Virus record (IMG/VR): IMGVR_UViG_2675903368_000016
Reading direction: 5' to 3' (one strand)
Length of the DNA: 37,585 nucleotides
DNA from: a virus
Taxonomy: Duplodnaviria; Heunggongvirae; Uroviricota; Caudoviricetes
The notes under the pieces are model-generated. The model was not told where the DNA came from. It searched no databases and worked only from the letters and a program-made list of their open reading frames with translations. Below are positions 10,145-37,585 of this stretch, piece after piece. A program made the translations under genes and the position numbers. Position 1 is the stretch's first letter. Every line of letters starts with the position of its first letter.

Positions 10145-10717
10145 TCAGGGGGATTCATTACTCTTATTTGCCGGAAATTTTCTATAAATTGTGGAAACAC
10201 CCACATCAAAAATCAGTGCAATACGCTGTCTTGATTCTCCGGCCTCGAGTAAGCGTCCAATCTGTGCCCACTGTTCGGTGGTCAACTTAGGACGGCGTCC
10301 ACCTACTCTGCCTTTATCACGAGCTGCAGCCAGCCCCGCCCTGGTACGTTCAACTATCAGTTCGCGTTCCATTTCAGCCAGGGCCCCCATGACATGAAAA
10401 AAGAAACGGCCCATTGGGGTGCTGGTATCAATACTGTCAGTCAGGCTTCGGAAATTCACGCCACGCTGACGCAACTCTTCTATCAGCGTAACAAGATGCC
10501 GCATACTGCGCCCCAACCTGTCCAGCTTCCAGACAACCAGAGTGTCTCCTGCCGATAGTGTCCTGAGCAGTTTTTTAAGCCCCGGTCTGTCGGACTTAGT
10601 GCCACTGATTTTGTCCTCAAAAATCCGCTCACATCCCGCGCAGTTCAGTGCATTACGTTGCAAATCTGTGTTCTGGTCATTTGTTGACACGCGTACATAG
10701 CCAATAAGCATGATCAT
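10145..10717 (-). CDS. Serine DNA invertase, Hin/Gin/Pin/Cin family (copy 1)
   Basis: 190-aa ORF M(IM)LIGYVRVSTNDQNTDLQRNAL... with N-terminal catalytic Ser motif and C-terminal HTH; true start may be Met3. Confidence 0.9.
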   Translation of the reverse strand: MIMLIGYVRVSTNDQNTDLQRNALNCAGCERIFEDKISGTKSDRPGLKKLLRTLSAGDTLVVWKLDRLGRSMRHLVTLIEELRQRGVNFRSLTDSIDTSTPMGRFFFHVMGALAEMERELIVERTRAGLAAARDKGRVGGRRPKLTTEQWAQIGRLLEAGESRQRIALIFDVGVSTIYRKFPANKSNESP

Positions 10718-10738
10718 CTCCTTGAATAAAAATCGGGG

Positions 10739-11263
10739 ATGATGCCAGTTAGTCGTAATCGCTGCATTTTCTTATACGTTGGTTTGGGAGAAGGTTCGGC
10801 ATTACCCGTTGGTGTGCCTGTTCCATGGCCTTCAGCCACACCGCCAACAGGCTGGCTGAAATGCAACGGTGCGCCTTTTTCTGCAGAAGAATACCCGGAA
10901 CTGGCAAAGGCTTATCCAACAAATAAATTGCCTGATTTACGCGGTGAATTCATTCGCGGCTGGGATGATGGGCGCGGGGTGGATGCTGGTCGAGATTTGT
11001 TATCATCTCAAGGGGATGCAATAAGAAATATAACTGGAGGATTTAATATCAGACCTGGATCGAGCAGTGCTTTGATTACTTTCGCTGCTGGTGCTCTTAA
11101 AGTAGCATCAAGAGTTCAAAGTGCTTATGTCACAAACACTTCAGCCACTGACAAAATTGCTGAAGGTATAGACTTCGATGCCAGTGCTGCTCCTGGAGTT
11201 GTAACTGCATCTGAAAACCGTCCAAGAAATATCGCGTTTAACTACATTGTAAGGGCAGCATGA
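10739..11263 (+). CDS. Tail-fibre variable C-terminal module A (silent alternative receptor-binding domain)
   Basis: 174-aa ORF; after an 18-aa leader (MMPVSRNRCIFLYVGLGE) read from the invertase upstream region it continues ...PVPWPSATPPTGWLKCNGAPFSAEEYPELAKAYP, a tail-collar-type motif. Confidence 0.7.
   Translation: MMPVSRNRCIFLYVGLGEGSALPVGVPVPWPSATPPTGWLKCNGAPFSAEEYPELAKAYPTNKLPDLRGEFIRGWDDGRGVDAGRDLLSSQGDAIRNITGGFNIRPGSSSALITFAAGALKVASRVQSAYVTNTSATDKIAEGIDFDASAAPGVVTASENRPRNIAFNYIVRAA
10767..10792 (+). other. 26-bp invertase crossover site Z (hix/gix-like)
   Basis: TTTTCTTATACG-TT-GGTTTGGGAGAA, an imperfect dyad around a central TT; exact reverse complement of site Y. Confidence 0.7.
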
Positions 11264-11865
11264 TGAATAAAGTTGTATTAAATAGTGAGCTTATTGCTAC
11301 AAAGGCGGGGAGTGTTACCGTTTATAATTATGATGGCGAAACACGGGAATATATTGCCACATCAACTGAACATCTTGCTGTCGGTGTCGGTATCCCGGTA
11401 TGTTCTTGTTTAGATGCTCCGAGCTCAAACAAAGCTGGTTATGCAATCTGCCGTTCGGCAGATTTAAACTCATGGGAATATGTGCCAGACCATCGCGGTG
11501 AAACGGTCTATAGCACCGAAACAGGAGAATCAAAAGAAATCACCGCTCTGGGTGATTACCCTGAAAATACAACCACTATCGCCCCGTTAACGCCATATGA
11601 TAAATGGAATGGTGAAAAATGGGTGGCGGATACTGAGGCACAGCATAGCGCCGCAGTAGAAGCGGCAGAAGCACAGCGCCAGTCACTGATTGATGCTGCA
11701 ATGGCTTCCATTGGTCTGATTCAGCTGAAATTACAGGCCGGACGGAATCTGACGCAGGCAGAAACCGCCAGACTTAACGCTGCGCTGGATTACATTGACG
11801 CGGTGACGGCAACAGATACCAGCACGGCGCCGGATGTCATCTGGCCTGAACTGCCGGAGGCGTAG
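11260..11865 (+). CDS. Tail-fibre assembly chaperone, module A
   Basis: 201-aa ORF immediately after module A; conserved chaperone-type C-terminal end (...APDVIWPELPEA). Confidence 0.7.
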   Translation: MMNKVVLNSELIATKAGSVTVYNYDGETREYIATSTEHLAVGVGIPVCSCLDAPSSNKAGYAICRSADLNSWEYVPDHRGETVYSTETGESKEITALGDYPENTTTIAPLTPYDKWNGEKWVADTEAQHSAAVEAAEAQRQSLIDAAMASIGLIQLKLQAGRNLTQAETARLNAALDYIDAVTATDTSTAPDVIWPELPEA

Positions 11866-12277
11866 GCCATTCAATATCTGGCGCACTGGAAGTATCGACC
11901 AGTTCCAGTGCGTCCAGATAATCCAGCCACAAATTATATTGCGCCAGTTCCTCACCTTTCAGGCGACCAATCGCCGCTTTACCAGGCCATTGCTTACTGT
12001 GTGTGTATTCGTTGACCTGATTAATCAATTGCTGCTTTTCCAGTTCGGCTGCGGCAATTTGTTCCTCATGAGTTGGCGGTGGAATATCAATCCATGCAGG
12101 CATTCCGTCGATGACACCTCTGTATTTTCCTTCTGGTGCTTCCTTCATAAATTCGGCGGCAACAGTGTCGTCAATTTCGATTCCATCACCGGGCCATTCG
12201 CCGGATTCCTGATAAGCGATTTTAAGCTCCACAGGGAAAAACGCATTTTTATCGGCACTGAAAATATATTTCTGCAT
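11837..12277 (-). CDS. Tail-fibre assembly chaperone, module B (full length)
   Basis: 146-aa ORF MQKYIFSADKNAFFPVELKIAY... convergent with chaperone A; C-terminus ...APDIEWPTPPAVQAR. Confidence 0.7.
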   Translation of the reverse strand: MQKYIFSADKNAFFPVELKIAYQESGEWPGDGIEIDDTVAAEFMKEAPEGKYRGVIDGMPAWIDIPPPTHEEQIAAAELEKQQLINQVNEYTHSKQWPGKAAIGRLKGEELAQYNLWLDYLDALELVDTSSAPDIEWPTPPAVQAR

Positions 12278-12279
12278 TT

Positions 12280-12678
12280 CTACCGTCCTATCGAAATATA
12301 ACTGAATCTGTATTGCTGTGAGATATCACTGGTTGCCACACGCCACGCTGAATTACTGATATGTTCAAAATTTACAGACAAAACCTGCGGGGCAGGATTC
12401 GACGGGGCTGACTGAACGGCATCAGACATAACACTGACTGAAACCATCGGCTGATTAGGGAATGGTATAGGGAAGTGTCCACTGATAAAGCGGGTCGTGT
12501 TTCCTGAAAAAGTGCCAAACTGAACAATATATCCACCTGGTAGCCTGAACCATCCCGAACCAGAAGCGAATGCTCCCATATCCGGTATCTGATTATCTCC
12601 TGTGCCCACATCCCTTTTCGCCGCTTCTCCCAAACCAACGTATAAGAAAATGCAGCGATTACGACTAACTGGCATCAT
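12280..12678 (-). CDS. Tail-fibre variable C-terminal module B, stand-alone duplicate copy
   Basis: 132-aa ORF with the same 18-aa leader, then a sequence identical to the C-terminal 114 aa of H. Confidence 0.6.
   Translation of the reverse strand: MMPVSRNRCIFLYVGLGEAAKRDVGTGDNQIPDMGAFASGSGWFRLPGGYIVQFGTFSGNTTRFISGHFPIPFPNQPMVSVSVMSDAVQSAPSNPAPQVLSVNFEHISNSAWRVATSDISQQYRFSYISIGR
12625..12650 (-). other. 26-bp invertase crossover site Y (hybrid site)
   Basis: Plus strand TTCTCCCAAACC-AA-CGTATAAGAAAA; left half identical to site X, right half identical to reverse-complement Z, with identity switching at the central AA. Confidence 0.7.
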
Positions 12679-12699
12679 CCCCGATTTTTATTCAAGGAG

Positions 12700-13443
12700 A
12701 TGATCATGCTTATTGGCTATGTACGCGTGTCAACAAATGACCAGAACACAGATTTGCAACGTAATGCACTGAACTGCGCGGGATGTGAGCGGATTTTTGA
12801 GGACAAAATCAGTGGCACTAAGTCCGACAGACCGGGGCTTAAAAAACTGCTCAGGACACTATCGGCAGGAGACACTCTGGTTGTCTGGAAGCTGGACAGG
12901 TTGGGGCGCAGTATGCGGCATCTTGTTACGCTGATAGAAGAGTTGCGTCAGCGTGGCGTGAATTTCCGAAGCCTGACTGACAGTATTGATACCAGCACCC
13001 CAATGGGCCGTTTCTTTTTTCATGTCATGGGGGCCCTGGCTGAAATGGAACGCGAACTGATAGTTGAACGTACCAGGGCGGGGCTGGCTGCAGCTCGTGA
13101 TAAAGGCAGAGTAGGTGGACGCCGTCCTAAGTTGACCACCGAACAGTGGGCACAGATTGGACGCTTACTCGAGGCCGGAGAATCAAGACAGCGTATTGCA
13201 CTGATTTTTGATGTGGGTGTTTCCACAATTTATAGAAAATTTCCGGCAAATAAGAGTAATGAAGTATTTTCCTTCTGGTGCTTCCTTCATAAATTCGGCG
13301 GCAACAGTGTCGTCAATTTCGATTCCATCACCGGGCCATTCGCCGGATTCCTGATAAGCGATTTTAAGCTCCACAGGGAAAAACGCATTTTTATCGGCAC
13401 TGAAAATATATTTCTGCATTTCTACCGTCCTATCGAAATATAA
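12700..13443 (+). CDS. Serine DNA invertase copy 2, C-terminally fused to 59 aa read antisense through a truncated chaperone gene
   Basis: First 188 aa identical to copy 1 (nucleotide identity 12625-13263 = reverse complement of 10154-10792); diverges after ...FPANKSNE. Confidence 0.8.
   Translation: MIMLIGYVRVSTNDQNTDLQRNALNCAGCERIFEDKISGTKSDRPGLKKLLRTLSAGDTLVVWKLDRLGRSMRHLVTLIEELRQRGVNFRSLTDSIDTSTPMGRFFFHVMGALAEMERELIVERTRAGLAAARDKGRVGGRRPKLTTEQWAQIGRLLEAGESRQRIALIFDVGVSTIYRKFPANKSNEVFSFWCFLHKFGGNSVVNFDSITGPFAGFLISDFKLHREKRIFIGTENIFLHFYRPIEI
13264..13419 (-). pseudogene. Truncated tail-fibre assembly chaperone B (first 52 codons only)
   Basis: Sequence identical to the 5' end of the 11837-12277 gene, then abruptly joined to the 3' end of invertase copy 2. 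Confidence 0.7.
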
Positions 13444-23269: not shown

Positions 23270-25036
23270 ATGAACACCACACTGACACCCGCAGATCTCG
23301 ATCCCCGTCGGCAGGCCATGCTGCTGTACTTTCAGGGATACCGCGTCGCCCGCATTGCTGAAATGCTGGGCGAGAAAGTTGCAACTGTTCACAGCTGGAA
23401 AAAACGCGACAAGTGGGGTGACTATGGGCCGCTGGATCAGATGCAGCTCACCACCGCCGCACGCTACTGCCAGCTCATTATGAAGGAGCACAAAGAAGGG
23501 AAAGATTTCAAAGAGATTGACCTGCTGGCGCGCCAGTCGGAGCGCCACGCGCGGATCGGCAAGTTTAACAATGGCGGCAACGAAGCCGATTTAAACCCTA
23601 ACGTCGCCAACCGCAACAAAGGCCCACGCCGTCAGCCGGAAAAGAATGTTTTCACCGATGAACAGATTGAGAAGCTGGAAGAAATCTTCCATTCCTCCAT
23701 GTTCAACTACCAGCGCCACTGGTGGGAAGCCGGAAAAACCAACCGCATCCGCAACCTGCTGAAGTCACGCCAGATCGGCGCAACCTTCTATTTTGCCCGT
23801 GAAGCCCTGATTGACGCCCTGCTGACCGGACGTAACCAGATTTTCCTTTCCGCCAGCAAGGCACAGGCCCACGTCTTTAAGCAGTACATCTTCGACTTCG
23901 CCAAAGAAGTGGAGGTGGAGCTGAAAGGTGATCCGATGGTGCTTCCTAACGGTGCCACGCTTTACTTCCTCGGCACCAATGCCCGCACTGCCCAGAGTTA
24001 TCACGGCAACCTGTATCTGGATGAATATTTCTGGATACCGAAATTTCAGGAGCTGCGTAAAGTGGCTTCCGGTATGGCTATTCACAAAAAATGGCGACAA
24101 ACCTATTTTTCCACGCCATCAAGCCTGACCCACAGTGCTTATCCGTTCTGGTCCGGTGCGCTGTTCAACCGTGGACGCAACAAAGCCGACAAGGTGGACA
24201 TCGACCTGTCCCACAGCAATCTGGCCCCCGGCCTGCTGTGCGCAGACGGGCAATACCGCCAGATAGTCACCGTGGAAGATGCGGTGCGCGGCGGCTGCAA
24301 CCTGTTCGACCTTGACCAGTTGCGCATGGAGTACAGCCCGGACGAATACCAGAACCTGCTGATGTGCGAGTTTGTGGACGATCTCGCGTCCGTGTTTCCG
24401 CTCAGCGAGCTGCAGGCGTGCATGGTGGACAGTTGGGAAGTCTGGACCGACTTTCATGCACTGGCCCTTCGCCCGTTTGGGTGGCGCGAAGTGTGGATCG
24501 GTTATGACCCGGCAAAAGGTACGCAGAACGGCGACAGCGCCGGATGCGTGGTGGTGGCACCGCCAGCCGTGCCGGGCGGTAAGTTCCGTATTCTTGAGCG
24601 CCACCAGTGGCGCGGGATGGACTTCCGCGCCCAGGCGGACGCCATCAAAAAACTGACCGAACAGTACAACGTGACATATATCGGCATCGACTCGACGGGT
24701 GTCGGTCACGGGGTTTACGAGAACGTGAAAGCGTTTTTTCCTGCCGTCCGGGAGTTTGTCTACAACCCCAACGTTAAAAATGCCCTGGTACTCAAGGCAT
24801 ACGACATTATCAGCCACCGCCGTCTGGAGTTTGACGCCGGGCACACCGACATTGCGCAGTCATTCATGGCAATCCGTCGCGCCACCACCGCCAGTGGCAA
24901 CCGCCCGACCTATGAAGCCAGCCGCAGCGAAGAAGCCAGCCACGCCGATCTGGCCTGGGCAACGATGCACGCACTGTTTAATGAACCGCTGCAGGGCGAG
25001 TCCGCCAATACAAGCAATATTGTGGAGATTTTTTGA
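23270..25036 (+). CDS. P: Terminase large (ATPase) subunit gpP
   Basis: 588-aa ORF divergent from O. Confidence 0.85.
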   Translation: MNTTLTPADLDPRRQAMLLYFQGYRVARIAEMLGEKVATVHSWKKRDKWGDYGPLDQMQLTTAARYCQLIMKEHKEGKDFKEIDLLARQSERHARIGKFNNGGNEADLNPNVANRNKGPRRQPEKNVFTDEQIEKLEEIFHSSMFNYQRHWWEAGKTNRIRNLLKSRQIGATFYFAREALIDALLTGRNQIFLSASKAQAHVFKQYIFDFAKEVEVELKGDPMVLPNGATLYFLGTNARTAQSYHGNLYLDEYFWIPKFQELRKVASGMAIHKKWRQTYFSTPSSLTHSAYPFWSGALFNRGRNKADKVDIDLSHSNLAPGLLCADGQYRQIVTVEDAVRGGCNLFDLDQLRMEYSPDEYQNLLMCEFVDDLASVFPLSELQACMVDSWEVWTDFHALALRPFGWREVWIGYDPAKGTQNGDSAGCVVVAPPAVPGGKFRILERHQWRGMDFRAQADAIKKLTEQYNVTYIGIDSTGVGHGVYENVKAFFPAVREFVYNPNVKNALVLKAYDIISHRRLEFDAGHTDIAQSFMAIRRATTASGNRPTYEASRSEEASHADLAWATMHALFNEPLQGESANTSNIVEIF

Positions 25037-26082
25037 TGGGAAAGAGTAAGAAAAACCGCGCTGCGGCGATGAATCACATCCAGCATAAAAGCCAGACTTC
25101 AGCCGAAGCATTCAGCTTCGGCGATCCCGTTCCTGTTCTGGACCGCCGAGAATTACTGGACTATGTGGAATGCGTACAGATGGACCGTTGGTATGAGCCG
25201 CCCGTCAGCTTTGACGGACTGGCGCGCACCTTCCGCGCCGCCGTGCATCACAGTTCCCCGATTGCAGTAAAGTGCAACATTCTGACCAGTACCTATATCC
25301 CTCATCCGCTGCTCAGCCAGCAGGCTTTTTCGCGTTTTGTGCAGGACTATCTGGTATTTGGTAACGCCTACCTGGAGAAACGCACGAACCGCTTCGGTGA
25401 AGTTATCGCCCTTGAACCGACCCTGGCAAAATACACCCGACGCGGATTAGACCTGGATACCTACTGGTTTGTGCAATACGGCATGACTACGCAGCCGTAT
25501 CAGTTCACGAAAGGCAGCATTTTTCATCTGATGGAACCGGACATCAACCAGGAGATCTACGGCCTGCCCGGTTATCTTTCTGCCATTCCGTCAGCCCTGC
25601 TCAACGAGTCCGCCACGCTGTTCCGCCGCAAGTATTACATTAACGGCAGTCATGCAGGCTTCATCATGTACATGACCGATGCAGCGCAGAACCAGGAGGA
25701 TGTGAACAACCTCCGCAATGCGATGAAAAGCGCCAAAGGTCCTGGTAACTTCCGTAACCTGTTTATGTACTCGCCTAACGGTAAAAAGGACGGGCTTCAG
25801 ATTATCCCGTTGTCAGAAGTGGTGGCGAAGGATGAGTTCCTGAATATCAAGAACGTGAGCCGGGACGACATGATGGCGGCGCATCGTGTGCCGCCACAAA
25901 TGATGGGGATAATGCCTAATAATGTCGGGGGGTTTGGGGATGTAGAAAAGGCAAGCCGTGTCTTTGTCCGCAACGAGTTGATACCTCTGCAGAAACGCCT
26001 ACAGGAACTTAACAACTGGCTGGGCGATGAAGTTATACGTTTCGAGCCGTACACTTTAGATATTCAGAATGAAAAGAAATAA
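25033..26082 (+). CDS. Q: Portal protein gpQ
   Basis: 349-aa ORF overlapping the P stop by 4 nt; P2 order P then Q toward cos. Confidence 0.85.
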   Translation: MMGKSKKNRAAAMNHIQHKSQTSAEAFSFGDPVPVLDRRELLDYVECVQMDRWYEPPVSFDGLARTFRAAVHHSSPIAVKCNILTSTYIPHPLLSQQAFSRFVQDYLVFGNAYLEKRTNRFGEVIALEPTLAKYTRRGLDLDTYWFVQYGMTTQPYQFTKGSIFHLMEPDINQEIYGLPGYLSAIPSALLNESATLFRRKYYINGSHAGFIMYMTDAAQNQEDVNNLRNAMKSAKGPGNFRNLFMYSPNGKKDGLQIIPLSEVVAKDEFLNIKNVSRDDMMAAHRVPPQMMGIMPNNVGGFGDVEKASRVFVRNELIPLQKRLQELNNWLGDEVIRFEPYTLDIQNEKK

Positions 26083-26110
26083 AAGTTAGCGAATAAAAAT
26101 CATTAGCATA

Positions 26111-26131
26111 GGCCGCAAACTGAGCGGCCTT
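26111..26131. terminator. Bidirectional hairpin terminator between Q and the convergent accessory operon
   Basis: Stem AGGCCGC / GCGGCCT with loop AAACTGA; T-rich tracts on both sides. Confidence 0.45.
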
Positions 26132-26136
26132 ATTCA

Positions 26137-26406
26137 TTACCAATTTCTTTTTTCGGAGTTTAGCCAATCACCGCATGGATAATATCTTGACGCCCATTCA
26201 CCTTGTAAACGAGCTACAAACAGAATATCGTTACTATCGACCCTGGCTTGGAGTCCGTCACGCAGTTGAGTTGCGGTCAGCGTTGTATCTACTAACCAAA
26301 ATGATTCAAGATATTTACAGTATGTAAATTGCTTTAGATAGTCAAAAACTTCATCGTAGTTTCTTCCCGGAGCCTTCAAGTCATAGGTTATACAATAAAT
26401 AGCCAT
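26137..26406 (-). CDS. Hypothetical 89-aa protein, accessory cassette gene 4
   Basis: ORF MAIYCITYDLKAPGRNYDEVFDYLKQF...; AT-rich; 4-nt gap to the upstream gene; no confident family assignment. Confidence 0.55.
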   Translation of the reverse strand: MAIYCITYDLKAPGRNYDEVFDYLKQFTYCKYLESFWLVDTTLTATQLRDGLQARVDSNDILFVARLQGEWASRYYPCGDWLNSEKRNW

Positions 26407-26409
26407 TCT

Positions 26410-26655
26410 CTAAGCTCCGCATTTTTTATCATTTGGGGAACATCTTAACCTGCGACATTTGCGGCAATACGATTGAGGGATCAGCCGCTCTCCTTCCATA
26501 GTTCTAAAACCAAACACTTCTTCAATTTTGTTCAAATCACCACTTGCAATAACCCCACAGCAGGGGCAGACAGCCTCAATTTGAAATGCCATGTCTATCT
26601 CCATTCCACATGTTGAATGTAGGGTAATACTTCCTTTCAAGCAAAAATGAGACAA
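26410..26655 (-). CDS. Small zinc-ribbon protein, accessory cassette gene 3
   Basis: C-P-C-C-G ... C-R-K-C-R-R...C...C cysteine pattern; probable true start at internal MAFQIEAV (about 60 aa). Confidence 0.5.
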   Translation of the reverse strand: MSHFCLKGSITLHSTCGMEIDMAFQIEAVCPCCGVIASGDLNKIEEVFGFRTMEGERLIPQSYCRKCRRLRCSPNDKKCGA

Positions 26656-26827
26656 GGATCTTGAAACCTAATTTAAACTTGCTTGCGCGCGCTCGTATCC
26701 CCGCCACGCCTGCCCGCTTTATGTAGTAGTTTTCATGCAGGTGCATGATCTACGCGAAAGCCCGCCAGTTCTGGCGGGCCCTAGCAAAAACGATCCTCAA
26801 ACGATCATGCGATCTCATGCAGCATAG

Positions 26828-27559
26828 TCATGCACGATCATTTGACTCAGCATCTGCTGCACGCTTGCTGCGCGAAGATGCACTTTTACTATCAATCTTT
26901 CGACAGTTCTTTCTATCCCTGGCTTCATTTTCTTTAAATTTGTTATATGTCTCAGTATCAAAAAACGAAATTGTTTCAACCTCATCTTTTGGTATGAGCA
27001 CACGGAAATCTTCGATATTAAGCCGAGACATTCCACTTATCACACCACTATCAAGATAATGTTGGTGATAGTTAGTCGTGATACTAATCGTTAGATCATC
27101 TTTATCCCGATATCCGCTTAACATCGGGAGAAGTTCAAGGTGCTCTGAAAGCCCGTTTTCTAACGCCGGACAAGTAACAAGACCAACATAGATTTTGCGA
27201 GACGACAGAGTTGCTATGATCGGAAACTGTCTTGCGGACGCTTCCATGAGTAATGATTCGAAAGCGTTATTACCCACAGCTTTAGCTAAGGCATCCCAGC
27301 GACGATCTCCACGTGATGTGCGTAACTTATTTCCAAAACCTGAAATCGCAGCGAGGACAATTGAAATCATAACCCATGCTATCTGTTTGATTTCATTTAT
27401 TCTTTGAAGTTTGTCTTTCGATGAAGACAACATGCCATTAAAACTGTCAGGTGTTAGATTCAAGGCATTAGCCAGCCAACGAAACCCTCCGCTGACGTTC
27501 AAAATAAAGGTGAAAAAACCGCCAAGGAGAAAAAAAAACGATACCCCAGGCAGCCACAA
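26828..27559 (-). CDS. Membrane protein of unknown function, accessory cassette gene 2 (distal frame)
   Basis: 243-aa ORF with hydrophobic segments (FFFLLGGFFTFIL; IAWVMISIVLAAISGF) and a charged C-terminal domain; no ATG at the reported start. Confidence 0.55.
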   Translation of the reverse strand: MWLPGVSFFFLLGGFFTFILNVSGGFRWLANALNLTPDSFNGMLSSSKDKLQRINEIKQIAWVMISIVLAAISGFGNKLRTSRGDRRWDALAKAVGNNAFESLLMEASARQFPIIATLSSRKIYVGLVTCPALENGLSEHLELLPMLSGYRDKDDLTISITTNYHQHYLDSGVISGMSRLNIEDFRVLIPKDEVETISFFDTETYNKFKENEARDRKNCRKIDSKSASSRSKRAADAESNDRA

Positions 27560-27671
27560 AAAAATAAGCGTCCCAGCCGTTGGAACGCTTATATCGGTAT
27601 CTTGTTGAAAGTGATAGGTTTACATAAATAAAACCACTAACCAAAATCACTGCTAAAAGTAATGTTGCCAT
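27468..27671 (-). CDS. N-terminal transmembrane segment ORF, probably the 5' part of the same membrane-protein gene in another frame
   Basis: 67-aa ORF MATLLLAVILVSGFIYVNL...; its ATG overlaps the stop of the upstream 71-aa gene (TAATG); joins the 243-aa frame at a T7/T9 homopolymer region. Confidence 0.45.
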   Translation of the reverse strand: MATLLLAVILVSGFIYVNLSLSTRYRYKRSNGWDAYFFVAAWGIVFFSPWRFFHLYFERQRRVSLAG

Positions 27672-27886
27672 TATCTGGTTCTATTAGTTTTCTCTTTTAC
27701 AGTGCTCGTTTTGATGCCTTCAAGCTTATCCATCTGTGCCTTGATGGCATCCATTGCTCTTTTGTTAGACAAGTCTACGGACACAAAACCATCTTTACTA
27801 AGATTGAGTTTGTCCTGGTTCTCTTTAAGAACCCTTGCCAGACGTTCAACTGGGTTACCCAGGCTAAATGCGGCGATGCTTGACAT
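27671..27886 (-). CDS. Hypothetical 71-aa protein, accessory cassette gene 1
   Basis: ORF MSSIAAFSLGNPVERLARVLKENQDKLNL...; first gene of the leftward AT-rich operon. Confidence 0.5.
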   Translation of the reverse strand: MSSIAAFSLGNPVERLARVLKENQDKLNLSKDGFVSVDLSNKRAMDAIKAQMDKLEGIKTSTVKEKTNRTR

Positions 27887-28156
27887 AACTCCCCCTTTTC
27901 ACATGGCGCGGAAGTCTACACTCCGACGCCTACAACCTCAACAGATTATCTTTAAAATTTAGACAACAATATCATCTGTTGATTGCGTTACTTAAACTTA
28001 AGTTCAATGCGCTCGATCATGCAAGCTGTTTCTTAAGAACTGTTAATTTCCTGGCATATATAGTGGTTAAGGTAACAAATTGACACTAACGCCTCGCATA
28101 GCTCGTTGTTCAACCTTGCTGACGCCAGAAGCAAGTTCAGACGCCAGCAACGTTTC

Positions 28157-28390
28157 TTAATGCAGCCAGCTGTCGTCTTCCCACACCTTCTGCATAATTT
28201 TCATCACTTGTTTTCTTTCTTCGTCCAGTTGCAATCCGGTCAGTTCCACACCGTTAGAGCTACCTTTGCGGATACGAATTACCGTTTTGGGATACAGAGG
28301 ACGCAGATTGCGGTAAAGCTCGGATTCAAGGGCGTCCAGGGTAGACTGGCTAATCTTCTGCTCTTTATCGATCATTATTTCAATGCGCAT
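28157..28390 (-). CDS. DinI-family protein (186 Tum-like SOS-inducible anti-repressor module)
   Basis: 77-aa ORF MRIEIMIDKEQKISQSTLDALESELYRNL...KIMQKVWEDDSWLH resembles E. coli DinI along its length; downstream of a LexA box. Confidence 0.75.
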   Translation of the reverse strand: MRIEIMIDKEQKISQSTLDALESELYRNLRPLYPKTVIRIRKGSSNGVELTGLQLDEERKQVMKIMQKVWEDDSWLH

Positions 28391-28401
28391 AAAAAGTCAC
28401 C

Positions 28402-28590
28402 TCAACTGATGACATCCATTGAGCGGTTGTATTCGTGGGTTCTGATTTTTGCCATGAGTTCATCTGTTAGTTCAGAAACCCACTGCAAAGCCAGCCCCTT
28501 CTCTTCATCACTACACTCACTAGCCGCTACAAGCTTAAGAAAAAAATCAATGCGCTGGAGCTTCAAAGACTCCAAAAAATAGTCCTGCAT
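28402..28590 (-). CDS. Small protein co-transcribed with the DinI-like gene (possible Tum N-terminal module)
   Basis: 62-aa ORF starting 42 nt downstream of the LexA box and ending 11 nt before the DinI-like gene. Confidence 0.5.
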   Translation of the reverse strand: MQDYFLESLKLQRIDFFLKLVAASECSDEEKGLALQWVSELTDELMAKIRTHEYNRSMDVIS

Positions 28591-28631
28591 CTTTCCTCCT
28601 ATGACACCAAAGCAATACTGTAAATATAACC

Positions 28632-28650
28632 ACTGTTTATATTTACAGTA
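28632..28650. promoter_or_regulatory. LexA operator (SOS box)
   Basis: aCTGTttatatttACAGta matches CTGT-N8-ACAG with an AT-rich spacer; a second CTGT half-site sits at 28617-28620. Confidence 0.75.
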
Positions 28651-28741
28651 TATAATAATCTTACTGATGTAAAACGTTTTTTACGTTCATCAGCCTGATA
28701 TGCCTGGTATTATTAAGAGCACGAATTGTTAACCCGCGTAA

Positions 28742-31156
28742 TTAATACAGGTTTCGCCACTTATCATCTTCCTGCAAACGCTGGTTCCGATAGAAGATAC
28801 GCAGGCCTGCTCCTGACGGAATACTGCCGCCGCGAAGGAGTAAATCGACCTCTTTCTCGCTACCATCAAATCCTCTGGACTTCAGCTCATAGACGAGCTG
28901 CTGTCGCTGATGGTCTGTAATTCGCTGTTTGTAGTCTTTACGCCGTTTCGGTTTAACCAGGCGTAACCTTGCTGCCAGTTCCCGGCGCTCTTTTTTGCTC
29001 ATACTGTGCAGGTAATCGTGCAACTGCTTGTCATCCATGCGGGTAATGTCCGTTCTGGTGCCCCCATCAGCTGATTTATCTTTCTCCTGTTGGTTCAAAT
29101 TTTCAGCAAGGGGACAGTTATTGCCACGAGTCCAAGGGGCGCAAGCGCCCTGGTCGGCTGCCGCCTCCTGAACGTCAACGGCTTTACGAACCATTTTCCA
29201 CTTCACTGCATGAGTGCAGATCTTGCCCTCTGCAATGGGTGACCAGATGCCATAAATACGAATGCCGTGATCGCCATAGGCGGTCGGCTCTTCGTTGATT
29301 TCATAAGCGGTTCTGATGAGGTGATATTTACGGGGAACCAGTACGCCGCCCTGCTTCATGATGTAGGTGGCAAAACAACCAGCATCAGCAGCAGCCAGAA
29401 TGGCATCAAGACGCGGGTTATCCAGTACCGGCGCACCTGCTTTTTTGTCACCCTGTTGCCTTGCCGCCTGACCAGCCAGCAAGCGAAGTTCACGGTAAGC
29501 CTGACGCCCCGGAATACCAAAGAAGCGGAATTGCTGAACACGATGCAGAGACGCCCAGGCATTCACGTATTCAGCGTTATCACGCAGAGATTTACCCGTT
29601 TCCTTGCTGATCTCGCCAGCCAGACCACGACCGTCAATGTTCTTACTGATATATTTCGCGATGTAGCTTGTCGGCGTTCCTTTGCGCGGGTTAATCAACT
29701 CAGACTTAAAGCGCGGCCCAGTGTTATTGCCCAGCTCCTCGCGGTCTTCACGGATGGCAAACTTACGCAGTAATGCAGTGATGGCACGGCGGTCTTTTTT
29801 GCGCATGAAACACAACAGGTGCCAGTGAACTGTGCCATCATGATGCGGCTCAGCCACCCGCACGCCATACCAGCGCAACCCGGCTTTGTGCATCGCCTTA
29901 CGAAATGCAGCAAACATGCCGACCAGATAATCGCTGCTTTGTCTTACCGTCGCGTTTGTCCAGGTCGGGTTTGGTCTGCCGTTATTTAGCGTGGAATGGA
30001 AACGCGACGGACAGGTGATAGTGTAGAAAACGGCGCAGTCACCGCGCATTTCCGCGATAAGCTCCAGACCTTTAACACAGGCCATCATCTCATTGCGGCG
30101 ATGCGCAGGGTTGCTGCTGCTGGCGTTTACCACATCCTCCATGTCCAGCGTGTCGCCGTCTTCGTTCACCAGTTCATGAGAACGGAAAAACTCCAGCGAC
30201 TTACGGCGCTGCTCACGTTTATGCATCACGGCTTCATAGCTGACATAAGGAGATGCTTTTTTGCTGACCAGGCAAACAGCGCGCAACTGCTCTTCCCGCC
30301 ATTCGCAACGCATCTTCCATAATTTCCGATACCACCAGTCGGCGCACAACATACGCGCCAGCGAACCCGGAATGAGTTCATAGGGCACGGGTTTACGGCG
30401 GTTTCTTTTCCGACGGAGTTGCTCAAACGCAGGTGGGATGACATCCAGACGCAGGGTTTCCGCTGCCACCTTTTCCCATGTCTTGCGGATTTCTTCTGGC
30501 TTAACGTCATCGGTGGCATACAAATCACCACAAGCTGCATCAAGGCACATACTCATATGCGCAGCTACCAGGGTGGACAGGCGTTTCACCTGATCCTGAC
30601 TCATTTCAGGCAGGATCAGCAGGCCGTCCAGCCCTTCATGGCTTGCCATAAAGCGAAAAGATGCAGATAGCTGACTGTCGCGTACATGCTCCAGTCGTTC
30701 CAGACATGGCTTAATCGTCTCACGTAAATAGCGGGAATAAGCCTTTGGCCTGCCCAGGCTGCTGAAGTATTCAATACGTTGCATCAGCGGCTTGCTGATA
30801 TGGGAAGGCTGGGCGTTGACGTCCGCCAGAATGACCATGTCTGAATTAAAACGCTGCTGCTCATGCGCCAGCTTTGCCCGGCTAATGAGCTTATCCTGCT
30901 CCATTTCGCGCTGGACAGGATCACGTGATTCATTAAAGAAATAACGCTCCCAGACCTGATCACTCAGTGCCTCGCGGCGCAACTGTTCCTGCTCGTTATC
31001 GGCAGCGTACAGAGTGATCAGGTTTGAAAGCGTAGAAACCGGCGCAACTTCCGCCGGGTCCAGATAAGGGTTAATGGCCTTTTTCGGGCTGTTCCATGAG
31101 AATGCTGCGGCAGCCTCGTTAAAGCCGCAGCAGTTGTTCATATCGGCATGACTCAT
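28742..31156 (-). CDS. A: Replication initiation protein gpA (rolling-circle nickase)
   Basis: 804-aa ORF at the end of the early operon; size and position fit P2/186 A. Confidence 0.8.
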
Positions 31157-34156: not shown

Positions 34157-34753
34157 ATGTCAACATCAAAGTACCCAAGTGAGATCAAAATAAATCCCAA
34201 TAAAGGTGGTAAGGCTGCGATTGAGCGATTAGTCGAAGCCTATGGCTTTACGACACGACAGGCTTTAGCTGATCACTTGGAAGTATCAAAAAGCACACTA
34301 GCGAACAGGTATTTGCGGGATACATTTCCTGCTGACTGGATAATCCAATGTGCTCTTGAAACAGGAACCTCCCTCAAATGGTTAACTACCGGACAAGGCC
34401 TTAAGCAAAGCTCGCTGACAGCAGCTACAGAAGAGCTTGTTAAGTTTCGCCTTGCCGCAGGCAAAATGATTGAAGACGGTTCATATGTCTTCGATTCATC
34501 ATTTCTTCCTGCAAACCTTTCATCACCAATTGTTGTTCAGGATGGACTCGTCACATACATTTGTGATCAAAAATTTTCTGAAGTACTTGATGGAAACTGG
34601 TTAATCAATATCGACGGAACCTATTCCATTCGAAAAATCACAAGGCTTCCTAAAGGAATGATTAAAATTACAACGGCAGAGAATAGCTTTGAATGTGCAT
34701 TTTCTGATATTGAAGTGGTTGCTTGTATAAGAAGTACAATAGTCTCGAATTAA
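34157..34753 (+). CDS. cI: CI-type immunity repressor
   Basis: 198-aa ORF with N-terminal HTH (TTRQALADHLEVSKSTLANR), divergent from apl and upstream of int. Confidence 0.7.
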   Translation: MSTSKYPSEIKINPNKGGKAAIERLVEAYGFTTRQALADHLEVSKSTLANRYLRDTFPADWIIQCALETGTSLKWLTTGQGLKQSSLTAATEELVKFRLAAGKMIEDGSYVFDSSFLPANLSSPIVVQDGLVTYICDQKFSEVLDGNWLINIDGTYSIRKITRLPKGMIKITTAENSFECAFSDIEVVACIRSTIVSN

Positions 34754-34773
34754 TATAGTAAAAGGATTTTAAA

Positions 34774-36450
34774 ATGAATTCATTTGCCATCGTTATACTC
34801 TTATTAGCATTTCTCGCCCCTGTTCTAGCTGTAATATTATTTAAACAAAGTAAAAAACACAAAGCGGCTATAGATAACCTGACAGCTAACAACATAGCCC
34901 TTTCTAACCAACTGATTGAAAATCAAGAAAAACTAGCACAGACCGTACGAGAATTATCAGAGCTTGAAGGGCGAGCAGCACCATTGTGGCAATACGAAGA
35001 ATTGCACAGCGCAGTAATGGATGCAGAGAATAAGATAAAAAATGCGGACTCAATAGCCAAGCAAAAAATAGATGAAGCCCAAATTAAGGCGGCTAAAACA
35101 GTAAACGAAGCAAATTATCAAGCTCAGATGACAATAAGCAACGCTAATAGCGAAGCTATAGCAATCACCAAAGACGCTCGCGATGCACGCCTGAAAGCCA
35201 AAGAACGTCTTGATAATGCTAATAATAAAGCAAATGAGCTAATCTCAAATGCTAATGACAATGCAGTAAAAATTATTTCTGATGCAGAAGAAAGAGCAAA
35301 GGAGATTGCTGGTTCAGCATATGAAGCTAAAGAGTTTGCAGAAAAATATGAAGCAGTTGCAAAATCAATGAAAAATAAAATTGAAGGTTATGGTGATGAA
35401 TGGATCATCCCTAACCGTAGTGTACTTGATGAGCTGGCAGAAAATTATGAATTTACAGATGCAGGCAAGGAATTACAAAAAGCCAGAGAGTTAACCAAAT
35501 CATTAATAAAAACTAATAAAGCTGCTTCGTGTGATTATGTTGAGCAAAACAGGCGTAATACTGCCATAAACTTTGTTTTGGATGCCTTCAATGGAAGAGT
35601 TGACAGTATTTTATCAAAAGTCAAACACAACAATTTTGGAAAACTTTCCCAAGAAATAAAAGATGCATTTCAACTAGTAAATTACAATGGCTCTGCCTTT
35701 AGGTCCGCAAAAATAAGTGACATCTATCTTCAGGCAAGACTCAACGAGCTAAAATGGGGTGTAGCAGTTAATGAAATTATGCTCGAAGAAAAAGAAGAGC
35801 AAAGAAGGATTAAAGAACAGCTTCGTGAAGAGGAAAGAGCTCGTAGAGAATATGAAAAAGCGATAAAAGAAGCTGAAAAAGAAGAAAAAGCTATTCAGCA
35901 AGCTATAAATAAAGCAACGAAAGAACTTATGCTTGCAAATGAAGAACAACGCTTAGCTTTAGAGCAAAAAATAGCTGAACTACAGTTAAAATATGAAGAA
36001 GCTGAAGCTAAAAATCAACGAGCTATTTCTATGGCTCAACAAACCAGATCAGGCCACGTCTATATCATTAGTAATATTGGTTCATTTGGCGAAGATGTAT
36101 ATAAAATTGGAATGACACGCCGCCTTGAACCACTTGATCGTGTTCGTGAACTCGGAGATGCTAGTGTTCCTTTTTCGTTCGATGTTCATGCGATGATTTA
36201 TAGTGATGATGCACCATCATTAGAAAACCATCTGCATAAAGTTTTCAACGAAAAGCAGGTCAATAAAATTAACTCACGAAAAGAGTTTTTTAACGTAAAT
36301 TTAAAAGAAATCAAATCAGTTATTGAAGACATGAACATCAACGCCCACTGGACAATGTTTGCAGAGGCGAAAGAATATAGAGAGTCTCTAGCTATTGAGC
36401 AGGAGCGCAAAGCAGCCACTTCCGCCAACGATGAACTACATGTTGCTTAG
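34774..36450 (+). CDS. Membrane-anchored coiled-coil protein with C-terminal GIY-YIG-like (T5orf172-type) domain; lysogeny-operon moron
   Basis: 558 aa: N-terminal TM helix, long coiled coil rich in A/E/K/N, C-terminal GHVYIISN...YKIGMTRRLEPLDRVRELG...; AT-rich; 20 nt after the cI stop. Confidence 0.7.
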   Translation: MNSFAIVILLLAFLAPVLAVILFKQSKKHKAAIDNLTANNIALSNQLIENQEKLAQTVRELSELEGRAAPLWQYEELHSAVMDAENKIKNADSIAKQKIDEAQIKAAKTVNEANYQAQMTISNANSEAIAITKDARDARLKAKERLDNANNKANELISNANDNAVKIISDAEERAKEIAGSAYEAKEFAEKYEAVAKSMKNKIEGYGDEWIIPNRSVLDELAENYEFTDAGKELQKARELTKSLIKTNKAASCDYVEQNRRNTAINFVLDAFNGRVDSILSKVKHNNFGKLSQEIKDAFQLVNYNGSAFRSAKISDIYLQARLNELKWGVAVNEIMLEEKEEQRRIKEQLREEERARREYEKAIKEAEKEEKAIQQAINKATKELMLANEEQRLALEQKIAELQLKYEEAEAKNQRAISMAQQTRSGHVYIISNIGSFGEDVYKIGMTRRLEPLDRVRELGDASVPFSFDVHAMIYSDDAPSLENHLHKVFNEKQVNKINSRKEFFNVNLKEIKSVIEDMNINAHWTMFAEAKEYRESLAIEQERKAATSANDELHVA

Positions 36451-36508
36451 CAATGTATGTTTCATAGTAATCACACATTGATTACTGGTTACATATACAG
36501 TTAAATTT

Positions 36509-36532
36509 AGCCCTCTGATATGAGGGCTTTTT
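36509..36532 (+). terminator. Rho-independent terminator abutting the int start codon
   Basis: Stem AGCCCTC / GAGGGCT with loop TGATAT, then TTTTT running into the int ATG. Confidence 0.55.
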
Positions 36533-37585
36533 ATGGCAGTACGAAAACTAACCACAGGGAAATGGCTTTGCGAATGTTACCCCGCCGGACGAAGTGGGCG
36601 TCGTGTGCGTAAACAATTCGCCACCAAAGGCGAAGCACTGGCTTTTGAGCGCCACACGATGGAAGAAACCGAAGCAAAGCCCTGGCTGGGTGAATCAGTG
36701 GATCGTCGAACACTGAAAGACGTGGTTGAGCTATGGTTCAAACTACATGGTAAATCTCTGACAGCTGGGCAGCATGTCTATGACAAATTGCTGTTGATGG
36801 TTGACGCTCTGGGCAATCCTCTTGCAACCGATCTCACCTCTAAAATGTTTGCCCACTATCGAGATAAACGCCTGACAGGCGAGATCTACTTCAGCGAGAA
36901 ATGGAAGAAAGGAGCAAGCCCGGTCACCATTAACCTGGAGCAAAGCTATCTAAGTAGTGTTTTTAGCGAACTATCCCGTCTGGGCGAATGGTCGTATCCG
37001 AACCCACTGGAGAACATGCGAAAATTCACCATCGCAGAAAAAGAGATGGCATGGCTTACCCATGAGCAGATTGTTGAATTGCTGGCTGATTGCAAACGTC
37101 AGGACCCAATTCTGGCACTGGTAGTTAAGATATGCTTAAGCACAGGCGCACGCTGGCGTGAAGCCGTAAATCTTACCCGCTCACAGGTGACCAAATACCG
37201 AATTACCTTTGTCAGAACGAAGGGGAAGAAAAACAGAAGCATCCCTATCAGTAAAGAGCTTTACGAAGAGATCATGGCGCTTGATGGGTTCAATTTCTTC
37301 ACAGACTGCTATTTTCAATTTTTATCCGTGATGGAAAAAACGTCTATCGTGCTCCCTCGCGGTCAACTCACACACGTTCTGCGCCATACGTTTGCGGCGC
37401 ACTTCATGATGTCGGGTGGAAACATTCTGGCCTTACAAAAAATTCTCGGACACCACGATATAAAAATGACTATGCGTTACGCACATCTGGCACCGGATCA
37501 TCTAGAAACGGCGCTCCGTTTCAATCCTCTGGCAACGCTGCCAAGTGGCGACAAAGTGGCGGCAGCGGTTGGCATTACCCCGTAA
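36533..37585 (+). CDS. int: Tyrosine integrase (P2/186 family)
   Basis: 350-aa ORF with ...LSTGARWREA...LRHTFAAHFMMSGGNILALQKILGHHDIKMTMRYAHL... (conserved R...H-x-x-R...Y residues); stop is the last codon of the window. Confidence 0.9.
   Translation: MAVRKLTTGKWLCECYPAGRSGRRVRKQFATKGEALAFERHTMEETEAKPWLGESVDRRTLKDVVELWFKLHGKSLTAGQHVYDKLLLMVDALGNPLATDLTSKMFAHYRDKRLTGEIYFSEKWKKGASPVTINLEQSYLSSVFSELSRLGEWSYPNPLENMRKFTIAEKEMAWLTHEQIVELLADCKRQDPILALVVKICLSTGARWREAVNLTRSQVTKYRITFVRTKGKKNRSIPISKELYEEIMALDGFNFFTDCYFQFLSVMEKTSIVLPRGQLTHVLRHTFAAHFMMSGGNILALQKILGHHDIKMTMRYAHLAPDHLETALRFNPLATLPSGDKVAAAVGITP

Follow-up and report, generated by a model that had tools for sequence, protein, structure and literature searches.

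A gene between the repressor and the integrase

What is encoded by the gene that separates cI from int in a 186/P2-like prophage, and does it belong to that position? In phages 186 and P2 the immunity repressor gene and the integrase gene are adjacent, with an overlap of 1 nt in the former and a gap of 115 nt in the latter. In the viral genome studied here (the window, i.e. the whole stretch of 37,585 nucleotides that was analysed) a further gene intervenes. A preliminary interpretation made from the letters alone (hereafter the sequence-only reading) had stated the adjacency in P2 and 186 correctly and had described an AT-rich gene of 1.7 kb starting 20 nt past the cI stop codon. This description is accurate: the open reading frame occupies positions 34774..36450, the spacer is 34754..34773, and the GC content of the gene is 37.0%, compared with 40.4% in cI, 48.9% in int and 52.6% in the remainder of the prophage. 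The gene is foreign by composition. The locus comprises the following features.

34157..34753, + strand: cI immunity repressor, 198 aa, heading the lysogenic operon (Pfam Phage_CI_repr 8e-32, Phage_CI_C 3.5e-27)
34754..34773, + strand: spacer of 20 nt between cI and the cargo gene, with the Shine-Dalgarno sequence AAAGGA (read from the sequence)
34774..36450, + strand: SNIPE (PD-λ-1) family gene, 558 aa, ATG start, single-gene anti-phage system (PADLOC, phrog, RefSeq)
34783..34842, + strand: N-terminal transmembrane (TM) helix, residues 4-23 (Kyte-Doolittle)
34843..35385, + strand: helical rod, residues 24-204, rich in Ala, Glu, Lys and Asn, heptad-periodic (AF2 model, heptad z=5.6)
35395..35703, + strand: globular DUF4041/SNIPE domain, residues ~208-310 (Pfam PF13250, AF2 model)
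35719..36048, + strand: helical linker rich in Glu, Arg and Lys, residues 316-425 (AF2 model)
36052..36333, + strand: GIY-YIG nuclease module of the T5orf172/MUG113 type, residues 427-520 (catalytic Glu E484, codon 36223-36225)
36448..36532, + strand: structured junction of cargo and int, with a hairpin at 36448-36503 followed by a hairpin at 36509-36528 and a T-run (RNA fold)
36533..37585, + strand: tyrosine integrase int, 350 aa, the final gene of the prophage arm (Pfam Int_N 3e-32, Phage_integrase 7e-22)

The lysogenic operon of 186 has the order pL-cI-int. A promoter scan found no + strand site within the spacer 34754..34773, and the same distance of 20 nt separates the two genes at the Klebsiella and Salmonella loci. 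From this spacing and the lack of a consensus promoter we infer that the gene and cI share one transcript. Its only neighbours in E. coli, Klebsiella and Salmonella are cI and int, and a 53%-identical homologue is located amid unrelated genes, so the gene appears to constitute a single-gene system without a conserved partner. PADLOC and Pfam scans of the other accessory open reading frames of the window (26828-27559 and 28106-28582) returned zero matches.

The gene belongs to a known defence family

The sequence-only reading had regarded the architecture of the product as not corresponding to any characterised system, and here it was mistaken. The 558-aa protein matches the PADLOC PD-Lambda-1 model PDLC03976 with E=2.4e-120 and 400.7 bits (residues 106-550 against positions 36-481 of the 491 in the profile), as well as PDLC03977 (E=7.9e-117) and phrog_1847 (6.6e-133), and the Pfam families DUF4041, T5orf172 and MUG113 each exceed their curated cut-offs. 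RefSeq labels the protein 'DUF4041' or 'SNIPE associated domain-containing protein', and Pfam PF13250 (DUF4041) now carries the name "SNIPE". The gene thus represents a known defence family and not a new system, and it is already recognised by PADLOC and by RefSeq/Pfam naming. PD-λ-1 was discovered functionally by Vassallo et al. in 2022 (PMC9519451), and Saxton et al. (Nature 2026, PMC13190303) demonstrated that SNIPE is a nuclease tethered to the membrane, where it cuts phage DNA as this is being injected.

As the reference we took a 500-aa E. coli protein that is most probably RCP76574.1 of ECOR26: it is from the same species and of the same length as the characterised SNIPE, agrees with it at nine of the nine residues given in the SNIPE paper, and matches the PD-Lambda-1 model with 659 bits. 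BLASTP aligns the 558-aa protein with this reference at 50% identity over residues 265-555 (E=4e-77). When PDB sequences were searched by profile, no relative with a solved structure emerged; the matches were compositional and linked the rod to designed helical bundles and to subunit b of ATP synthase. With considerable confidence, then, we interpret the product of 34774..36450 as a member of the SNIPE (PD-λ-1) family whose gene a 186/P2-like (Peduoviridae) prophage, integrated beside rcdA, carries between cI and int as cargo expressed in the lysogen.

Domain architecture

All parts of the SNIPE architecture are present in the protein, namely a TM anchor, a helical rod, the DUF4041/SNIPE domain, a helical linker and a GIY-YIG module with its catalytic glutamate. 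An AF2 model (pLDDT 80), built from an alignment of representative homologues, consists of a helix at residues 2-204, a globular domain at 208-310, and helices at 316-387 and 390-425 ahead of the nuclease. The single N-terminal TM helix proposed by the sequence-only reading is borne out: residues 4-23 alone stand out as strongly hydrophobic (mean Kyte-Doolittle score 3.16 across 19 residues), are helical in the model and are followed by KQSKKHK. The predicted topology, with this positively charged flank inside, would place a 3-residue N-terminal stub outside and KQSKKHK in the cytoplasm. The same N-out/C-in orientation was established for the reference SNIPE with PhoA-LacZα fusions (PMC13190303), and 59% of SNIPE homologues have a single TM segment, most of the protein being cytoplasmic.

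The coiled coil of roughly 350 residues that had been envisaged behind the anchor is real only in part. The helical rod exists and its heptad periodicity is clear at residues 30-204 (z=5.6), but the coil is not continuous, as the globular domain interrupts it and the linker at 316-425 shows no such periodicity (z=1.2). The rod, presumably the 'adapter' region, is ~20% identical to that of the reference SNIPE, is unalignable with it, and is ~70 residues longer. The compact DUF4041 domain (~100 residues, pLDDT 86-90) is recognised by PF13250 over residues 267-322 (46.6 bits where the cut-off is 27; E=3.1e-12), and residues 231-330 of this region have ~21% identity to the reference; identity rises to 47% in the linker.

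The C-terminal module is the best conserved part. Its assignment to the T5orf172 type of GIY-YIG domains, suggested from the motifs GHVYIISN and YKIGMTRRLEPLDRVRELG at residues 427-461, was confirmed by profile search (Pfam MUG113 3.7e-20, T5orf172 3.2e-17), and the module has the β-β-α-β-α core fold of the GIY-YIG superfamily. The nuclease domain is 70% identical to that of the reference SNIPE, and E484 aligns with the catalytic E414. The motif set comprises G427-H-V-Y430, Y443-K-I-G446, R449/R450, H472, E484 and N497/N500; all these residues other than Y443 are invariant or at least 90% conserved, Y443 is the majority residue at its position, and E484 is invariant across 46 diverse homologues. 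A Foldseek search of the full-length model against the PDB gave nothing at E<=0.001, with the long helices dominating and Slx1 appearing weakly, and the search was repeated with the isolated C-terminal module. The gene is predicted to encode a membrane-anchored GIY-YIG nuclease.

The phage records ON470620 and OM835953, as well as JGI records, give such proteins names like 'chromosome segregation ATPase' and 'V-type ATPase subunit H'. Together with weak matches to SMC, DivIVA and ATP synthase b/E and the first sighting of T5orf172 in phage T5, these names could be cited for a structural or segregation-type protein or for a selfish homing-type endonuclease with no role in defence. However, the weak matches fall far under the curated cut-offs (SMC_prok_A reaches 15.5 bits where 729 would be required) and lie within the Ala/Glu/Lys-rich rod, and we rejected the sub-threshold NCBIfam matches to DivIVA/Wag31, V-ATPase E and SMC coiled coils as compositional. 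Neither the Walker A motif [AG]x4GK[ST] nor any GK[ST] occurs in the 558-aa protein, the protein matches a defence family of validated function very strongly and over its full length, and the same slot in relatives holds Old or a KAP NTPase. A structural or homing role is thus extremely improbable.

A variable slot in front of int

The sequence-only reading had also closed the gene with a terminator abutting the int ATG. The hairpin AGCCCTC-TGATAT-GAGGGCT with its T-run does exist at 36509-36532 and does abut that start codon, and it contains the int Shine-Dalgarno sequence GAGGG; the junction 36448-36532 folds as RNA with -31 kcal/mol (z=-5.1), and 36509-36532 was called terminator-like. Nevertheless, the same hairpin precedes int in prophages whose cargo is Old, a KAP NTPase or a 63-aa open reading frame. 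Because it is conserved before int with differing or almost no cargo, we rejected its interpretation as the gene's own terminator; it is part of the conserved int block. The break points of homology with the relatives lie at about positions 36453-36475 of the window.

In sister prophages the slot between cI and int is occupied by a full-length Old homologue (PADLOC E=6e-234) or a PDC-S20 KAP NTPase, and in other relatives by the 63-aa open reading frame. In 186-like prophages that integrate beside rcdA, the junction of cI and int is a slot with variable defence cargo. A defence hotspot at this position in P2-related prophages has been reported before (PMC9122126; bioRxiv 10.64898/2026.02.27.708500); the present comparison documents the slot with SNIPE, Old, a PDC-S20 KAP NTPase or a 63-aa open reading frame, each linked to its own repressor allele.

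Of the 5426 complete E. coli genomes, 164 (3%) encode exactly this 558-aa protein, which is also present on at least 1000 public contigs and is always accompanied by the same cI allele. Linkage is almost perfect, the full-length cI allele being found in 163 E. coli genomes. Orthologues span Enterobacteriaceae, and those in Klebsiella and Salmonella have the same 198-aa cI upstream, i.e. the module of cI, the gene and int is conserved. The int allele, adjoining rcdA, is present in 1135 of the 5426 E. coli genomes, and we accordingly rejected the gene as part of the lineage core. Among prophages with this integrase the gene is accessory, and the synteny comparison shows other cargo in its place in relatives.

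Co-inheritance with one cI allele, together with the divergence of the specificity regions from the reference SNIPE, could be taken to mean that the nuclease serves within an immunity module to exclude other mobile DNA or heteroimmune P2/186-like relatives, and not to defend against siphoviruses. Against this, the tested myoviruses were all unaffected by the reference SNIPE (PMC13190303), plasmid transformation was not significantly changed according to the legend of Extended Data Fig. 1 of the same paper, and the linkage may simply reflect a proximity of 20 nt without recombination. We consider such a role very unlikely.

Proposed mode of action

The characterised SNIPE is localised to the membrane and loses function in the E414A mutant; its N-terminal region associates with ManYZ, and its DUF4041 binds both DNA and the tape measure protein (TMP) of the phage, with a crosslink to the latter, the association being with tape measure proteins of siphoviruses (PMC13190303). 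Prophage induction is unaffected by it (PMC13190303). By extension from this homologue, the protein in the window would be a constitutive product of the pL-type cI transcript in the lysogen, its nuclease being held off the chromosome and inactive there. Once a superinfecting phage injects its genome across the inner membrane, DUF4041 would engage this DNA as well as the injection machinery, in the form of the tape measure protein, and the cut in the incoming genome would be made by the GIY-YIG domain. The cell would survive, which would make this a direct defence rather than abortive infection. The resident myovirus prophage would be spared, since myoviruses are not among the targets of the reference SNIPE, nor is DNA that has already entered the cell.

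The sequence-only reading had left the choice between an anti-phage and an abortive-infection gene. Defence cargo in prophage lysogenic operons is often of the abortive-infection (Abi) type, and GIY-YIG/T5orf172 nucleases are found in several defence contexts, PADLOC also returning PDC-S57 matches for this gene. One may thus imagine a toxic effector, i.e. a tethered nuclease released or activated after infection that degrades both host and phage DNA and kills the cell; SNIPE devoid of its TM segment is indeed highly toxic and cuts the chromosome (PMC13190303). However, the characterised SNIPE provides direct defence, as infected cells grow on at high MOI, unlike those with the PD-λ-3 Abi control (PMC13190303), and the protein in the window retains both the TM anchor and the SNIPE architecture. 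An abortive mechanism is very unlikely on these grounds: the first half of the earlier proposal, a defence gene, probably holds, and the second gives way to the direct defence known from the characterised member.

Some caution is warranted in transferring activity and range. Members of the PD-Lambda-1 family defend S. thermophilus, and two homologues that are 98.5% identical there differ between full activity and none, so homology alone is insufficient for assuming activity. Neither the ManYZ association nor the siphovirus/TMP range is transferable either way, since the parts of the protein that confer them are either unalignable or have ~21% identity. With the rod and DUF4041 so strongly diverged, the target range of this subfamily probably differs from that of the reference. 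A broader proposal, which we put forward tentatively, is that the ~70 additional rod residues and the divergent DUF4041 give the 558-aa Peduoviridae-borne subfamily a different target range or docking partner, in which case co-inheritance with cI might mean a functional 'immunity plus entry-nuclease' module. If true, the subfamily could, for example, rely on a different entry factor of the inner membrane in place of ManYZ, or act against phage groups that SNIPE leaves untouched.

The value of the locus as a discovery is small, as annotators already recognise the gene and the mechanism of the family was published in 2026. The protein is, on the other hand, a very common natural SNIPE variant, and its differences from the studied protein lie precisely in the two regions that have been proposed as determinants of phage specificity; for this reason it lends itself directly to testing the 'adapter' hypothesis.

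Comparison with known systems

The closest known system is SNIPE / PD-λ-1 of E. coli ECOR26 (RCP76574.1), which has the same single-gene domain order, matches the same PADLOC model and is likewise prophage-borne. The protein in the window is longer by 58 residues, its N-terminal ~230 residues are unalignable, and its DUF4041 and nuclease are shifted 70 residues further from the N-terminus. The residues at which mutations retarget SNIPE differ as well (E223, W257, K305 and T319 correspond to S292, K327, Q375 and N389). The genomic settings also differ: the 500-aa form resides in a lambdoid prophage, where ren and the nin region flank it, whereas the gene studied here occupies the cI-int slot of a P2/186-like prophage.

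P2 Old and other cargos of P2-like phages (Tin, Fun/Z and the hotspots of Rousset et al. 2022, PMC9122126) are likewise anti-phage genes expressed in the lysogen from variable slots of Peduoviridae, but gpA-portal and Z/fun, and not cI-int, are the classical hotspots of P2, and Old, an ATPase-Toprim nuclease, is unrelated in protein and mechanism. Other GIY-YIG proteins, namely Slx1/HIGLE, I-TevI, the UvrC N-terminal domain, Eco29kI and PD-T4-3, share ~14-26% identity over 57-94 aligned residues and have no TM segment, DUF4041 or rod. [quoted passage not shown] Yet Zorya and Kiwa are multi-protein sensors and gp15 is a non-enzymatic block, whereas the gene in the window specifies a single tethered nuclease with no sequence or domain relationship to any of them.

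Identification of the inserted gene

The gene recognised between cI and int by the sequence-only reading, which took it for a candidate defence or exclusion factor, is real and its biology was correctly read. The ORF and both of its neighbours can be identified as follows.

34157..34753, +: cI, 198 aa, with both phage CI repressor domains
34774..36450, +: inserted gene, ATG-initiated ORF of 558 aa from the six-frame listing
36533..37585, +: int, 350-aa tyrosine integrase

The gene starts 20 nt after the cI stop codon, with AAAGGA inside the gap, and its G+C content is 37.0% (cI 40.4%, int 48.9%, remaining prophage 52.6%). The only strongly hydrophobic segment of the product, residues 4-23 (Kyte-Doolittle 3.16), is followed by KQSKKHK. 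The premise that cI and int adjoin each other in P2 and 186 holds in both genomes: the two genes overlap by 1 nt within the annotated pL/pE lysogenic operon of 186, and are separated by 115 nt on the Pc transcript of P2. The inserted gene occupies a lysogenic-operon position.

The decisive result for the identity of the protein is a PADLOC scan, in which two models of PD-Lambda-1, a single-gene anti-phage family now known as SNIPE, match it nearly full length (residues 106-550; E=2.4e-120 and 7.9e-117); phrog_1847 matches as well (E=6.6e-133). All three profile HMMs proposed with the sequence-only reading exceed the Pfam curated cut-offs, namely DUF4041 (PF13250; residues 267-322, E=3e-12), T5orf172 (427-520, E=3e-17) and MUG113 (443-520, E=4e-20). 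RefSeq names the identical E. coli gene "DUF4041 domain-containing protein", which newer records give as "SNIPE associated domain-containing protein", and the current precomputed Pfam label of PF13250 is "SNIPE". The earlier opinion that the architecture is not a characterised system must therefore be abandoned: the protein belongs to a recognised defence family with a characterised mechanism, and sits in a known type of prophage hotspot. Public records also name the protein "chromosome segregation ATPase" or "V-type ATPase subunit H"; a search for a Walker A motif found none, so these names are artefacts that stem from the composition of the helical rod.

Predicted structure

An AlphaFold2 model based on an alignment of 46 diverse homologs (mean pLDDT 80) has the following layout, which agrees with the published description of SNIPE.

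Residues 2-204: continuous helix
Residues 208-310: compact domain
Residues 316-387 and 390-425: two long helices
Residues 427-519: β-β-α-β-α module, followed by a terminal helix

The last module supports the GIY-YIG-like C-terminal domain suggested earlier. The proposed coiled coil of about 350 residues stands only in part: heptad periodicity is strong in residues 30-204 (z=5.6 versus shuffles), but the compact domain intervenes and the E/R/K-rich linker gives no signal against shuffles (z=1.2). Nine residues (Y430, K444, G446, R449, R450, H472, E484, N497 and N500) are invariant in 46/46 homologs. A profile search of PDB sequences retrieved no solved structure of any sequence relative.

A variable slot between cI and int

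The int allele of the window occurs in 1135 E. coli genomes, only 164 of which have the cI-gene-int arrangement, and the gene is hence not conserved core in all relatives. In int-allele genomes lacking it, similarity to the window begins at about 36453-36475, immediately past its stop codon. The alternative cargo of the slot is diverse.

HCM-26C-1: 589-aa Old homolog (PADLOC, E=6e-234)
L005, a related locus: 483-aa KAP NTPase (PDC-S20, E=4e-82)
ATCC 8739 and others: 63-aa ORF
Klebsiella phage 4LV2017: 349-aa protein of no assigned function

Each cargo type is accompanied by a different cI allele, and the full-length cI allele of the window is found in 163 genomes (164 for the gene itself). Given this cargo variation and linkage to cI alleles, the gene is accessory cargo co-inherited with the immunity type. 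In eight E. coli genomes the match is confined to the first 209 nt of cI (34157-34365; 88.6% identity), which suggests recombinant repressors with a common N-terminal HTH part and another C-terminal domain, presumably with different cargo too.

Of 5426 complete E. coli genomes, 164 carry the gene, each time on the chromosome and as a single copy; Escherichia phage vB_EcoM-813R9 at 99.9% identity and Klebsiella phage KP12 at 96% have it as well. At least 1000 contigs encode exactly this protein, whose 90% cluster counts 920 members. Orthologs with 83-85% identity are known from Klebsiella, Citrobacter, Salmonella, Enterobacter, Raoultella and others, with the same arrangement (198-aa cI, 20-nt gap, the gene) in Klebsiella and Salmonella, and the wider family comprises 3368 clusters (50% identity) at E≤1e-3 and 1409 at E≤1e-30. 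A P2-like prophage that is more distant (L015, 1533-9054) has a 53%-identical homolog within its larger cI-int island; this 5.8-kb island also holds a 521-aa unannotated protein, a 260-aa ORF and a Peptidase_M78 + HTH_3 pair.

In P2-related vibriophages the interval from cI to int has already been described as a defence hotspot (Rousset et al. 2022, PMC9122126), and minor integrase-primase and integrase-att hotspots are noted in a 2026 preprint covering thousands of P2-like prophages (bioRxiv 10.64898/2026.02.27.708500). In sister prophages the stretch from int to the right attachment site is a second variable slot, containing a Panacea-domain plus hypothetical protein, a DUF2971 protein or a pentapeptide-repeat protein (Klebsiella) (L007 6246-7474; L008 6299-7051; L010 6910-7770).

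The junction upstream of int

The 85 nt from the stop codon of the gene to the int ATG (36448-36532) are unusually structured, with two hairpins; the 98-nt junction folds at -31 kcal/mol, far better than shuffles (z=-5.1). The second hairpin (36509-36532), a 7-bp G+C-rich stem with a T-run, ends at the int ATG and sequesters the int Shine-Dalgarno (GAGGG) in its 3' arm. A terminator abutting the int ATG had been read as closing the inserted gene; the hairpin and T-run are indeed there, but they are not the gene's own. In an alignment of the 130 nt upstream of int from six loci, the hairpin, T-run and ATG are kept whichever cargo precedes them, and the stem shows one G·U-compatible change. This conservation rules out a cargo-borne terminator and assigns the hairpin to the int block. 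In the lysogen the hairpin plausibly attenuates int at the level of transcription or translation.

Other regions of the window

Several further features were recorded.

288-665: ybjM, host DNA
935-2620: ybjL-like Asp-Al_Ex/TrkA_C transporter gene, host DNA
10145-10717, -: serine invertase/resolvase gene (Resolvase + HTH_7, E~1e-52)
10739-12678: tail-collar and tail-fibre-assembly cassettes, between the two invertase/resolvase genes
12700-13443, +: second serine invertase/resolvase gene (Resolvase + HTH_7, E~1e-52)
26828-27559, -: 243-aa ORF
28106-28582, +: 158-aa ORF

The left end is host DNA, and rcdA lies immediately past int in relatives, so the prophage fills the ybjL-rcdA interval. The region 10145-13443 resembles a tail-fibre inversion segment for host-range switching, here with two invertases rather than one. 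The classical P2 defence hotspot (26082-28742) extends from the portal gene (25033-26082) to gpA (28742-31156); neither of its two ORFs had a match in Pfam and PADLOC scans, and either could be uncharacterised cargo.

Comparison with SNIPE

PD-λ-1 was discovered when E. coli fosmid libraries were functionally selected against λ, its source being ECOR26 (RCP76574.1, 1503 bp; PMC9519451), and was renamed SNIPE by Saxton et al. (bioRxiv 2025; Nature 2026;653:861, PMC13190303). According to the latter study, SNIPE is a single-pass, N-out/C-in protein constitutively at the membrane, which partners with ManYZ and the tape measure protein and cleaves λ DNA while it is injected, not later, leaving prophage induction unaffected; it defends directly and does not act by abortive infection. 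E414A and ΔDUF4041 each abolish defence, and ΔTM SNIPE is toxic because the chromosome gets cut. [quoted passage not shown] Among about 500 homologs the nuclease is best conserved, followed by DUF4041, and the N-terminal region, a proposed adapter, varies strongly in both length and sequence (PMC13190303).

PD-Lambda-1 homologs protect S. thermophilus from siphoviruses too; two of them, 98.5% identical, are one fully active and the other inactive.

By analogy with the characterised SNIPE, the lysogen would make the protein studied here constitutively; inserted into the inner membrane, it would cut phage DNA at the point of injection, the infected cell would survive, and the resident myovirus prophage would be unharmed.

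As a reference we used the 500-aa product of a 1503-bp DUF4041 gene from a lambdoid prophage of E. coli 118UI (locus L001, 7984-9486, between ren and the nin region). It scores 659 bits against the whole PD-Lambda-1 model, and each of the nine residues that the SNIPE paper names (E414, E223, N250, L253, W257, E264, K305, I308 and T319) is found in it at the position given there. BLASTP aligns it with residues 265-555 of our protein only (50% identity, E=4e-77), and identity differs among regions.

Residues 1-230, TM helix and N-terminal rod: ~20%, effectively unaligned
Residues 231-330, DUF4041 region: 21%
Residues 331-420, helical linker: 47%
Residues 421-525, nuclease: 70%

The invariant E484 pairs with the catalytic E414 of the reference, and the DUF4041 and nuclease domains lie exactly 70 residues farther from the N-terminus than in SNIPE. 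The N-terminal rod and DUF4041 are the diverged parts. With the reference residing in a lambdoid prophage, the two SNIPE subfamilies of E. coli are therefore carried by different temperate phage families.
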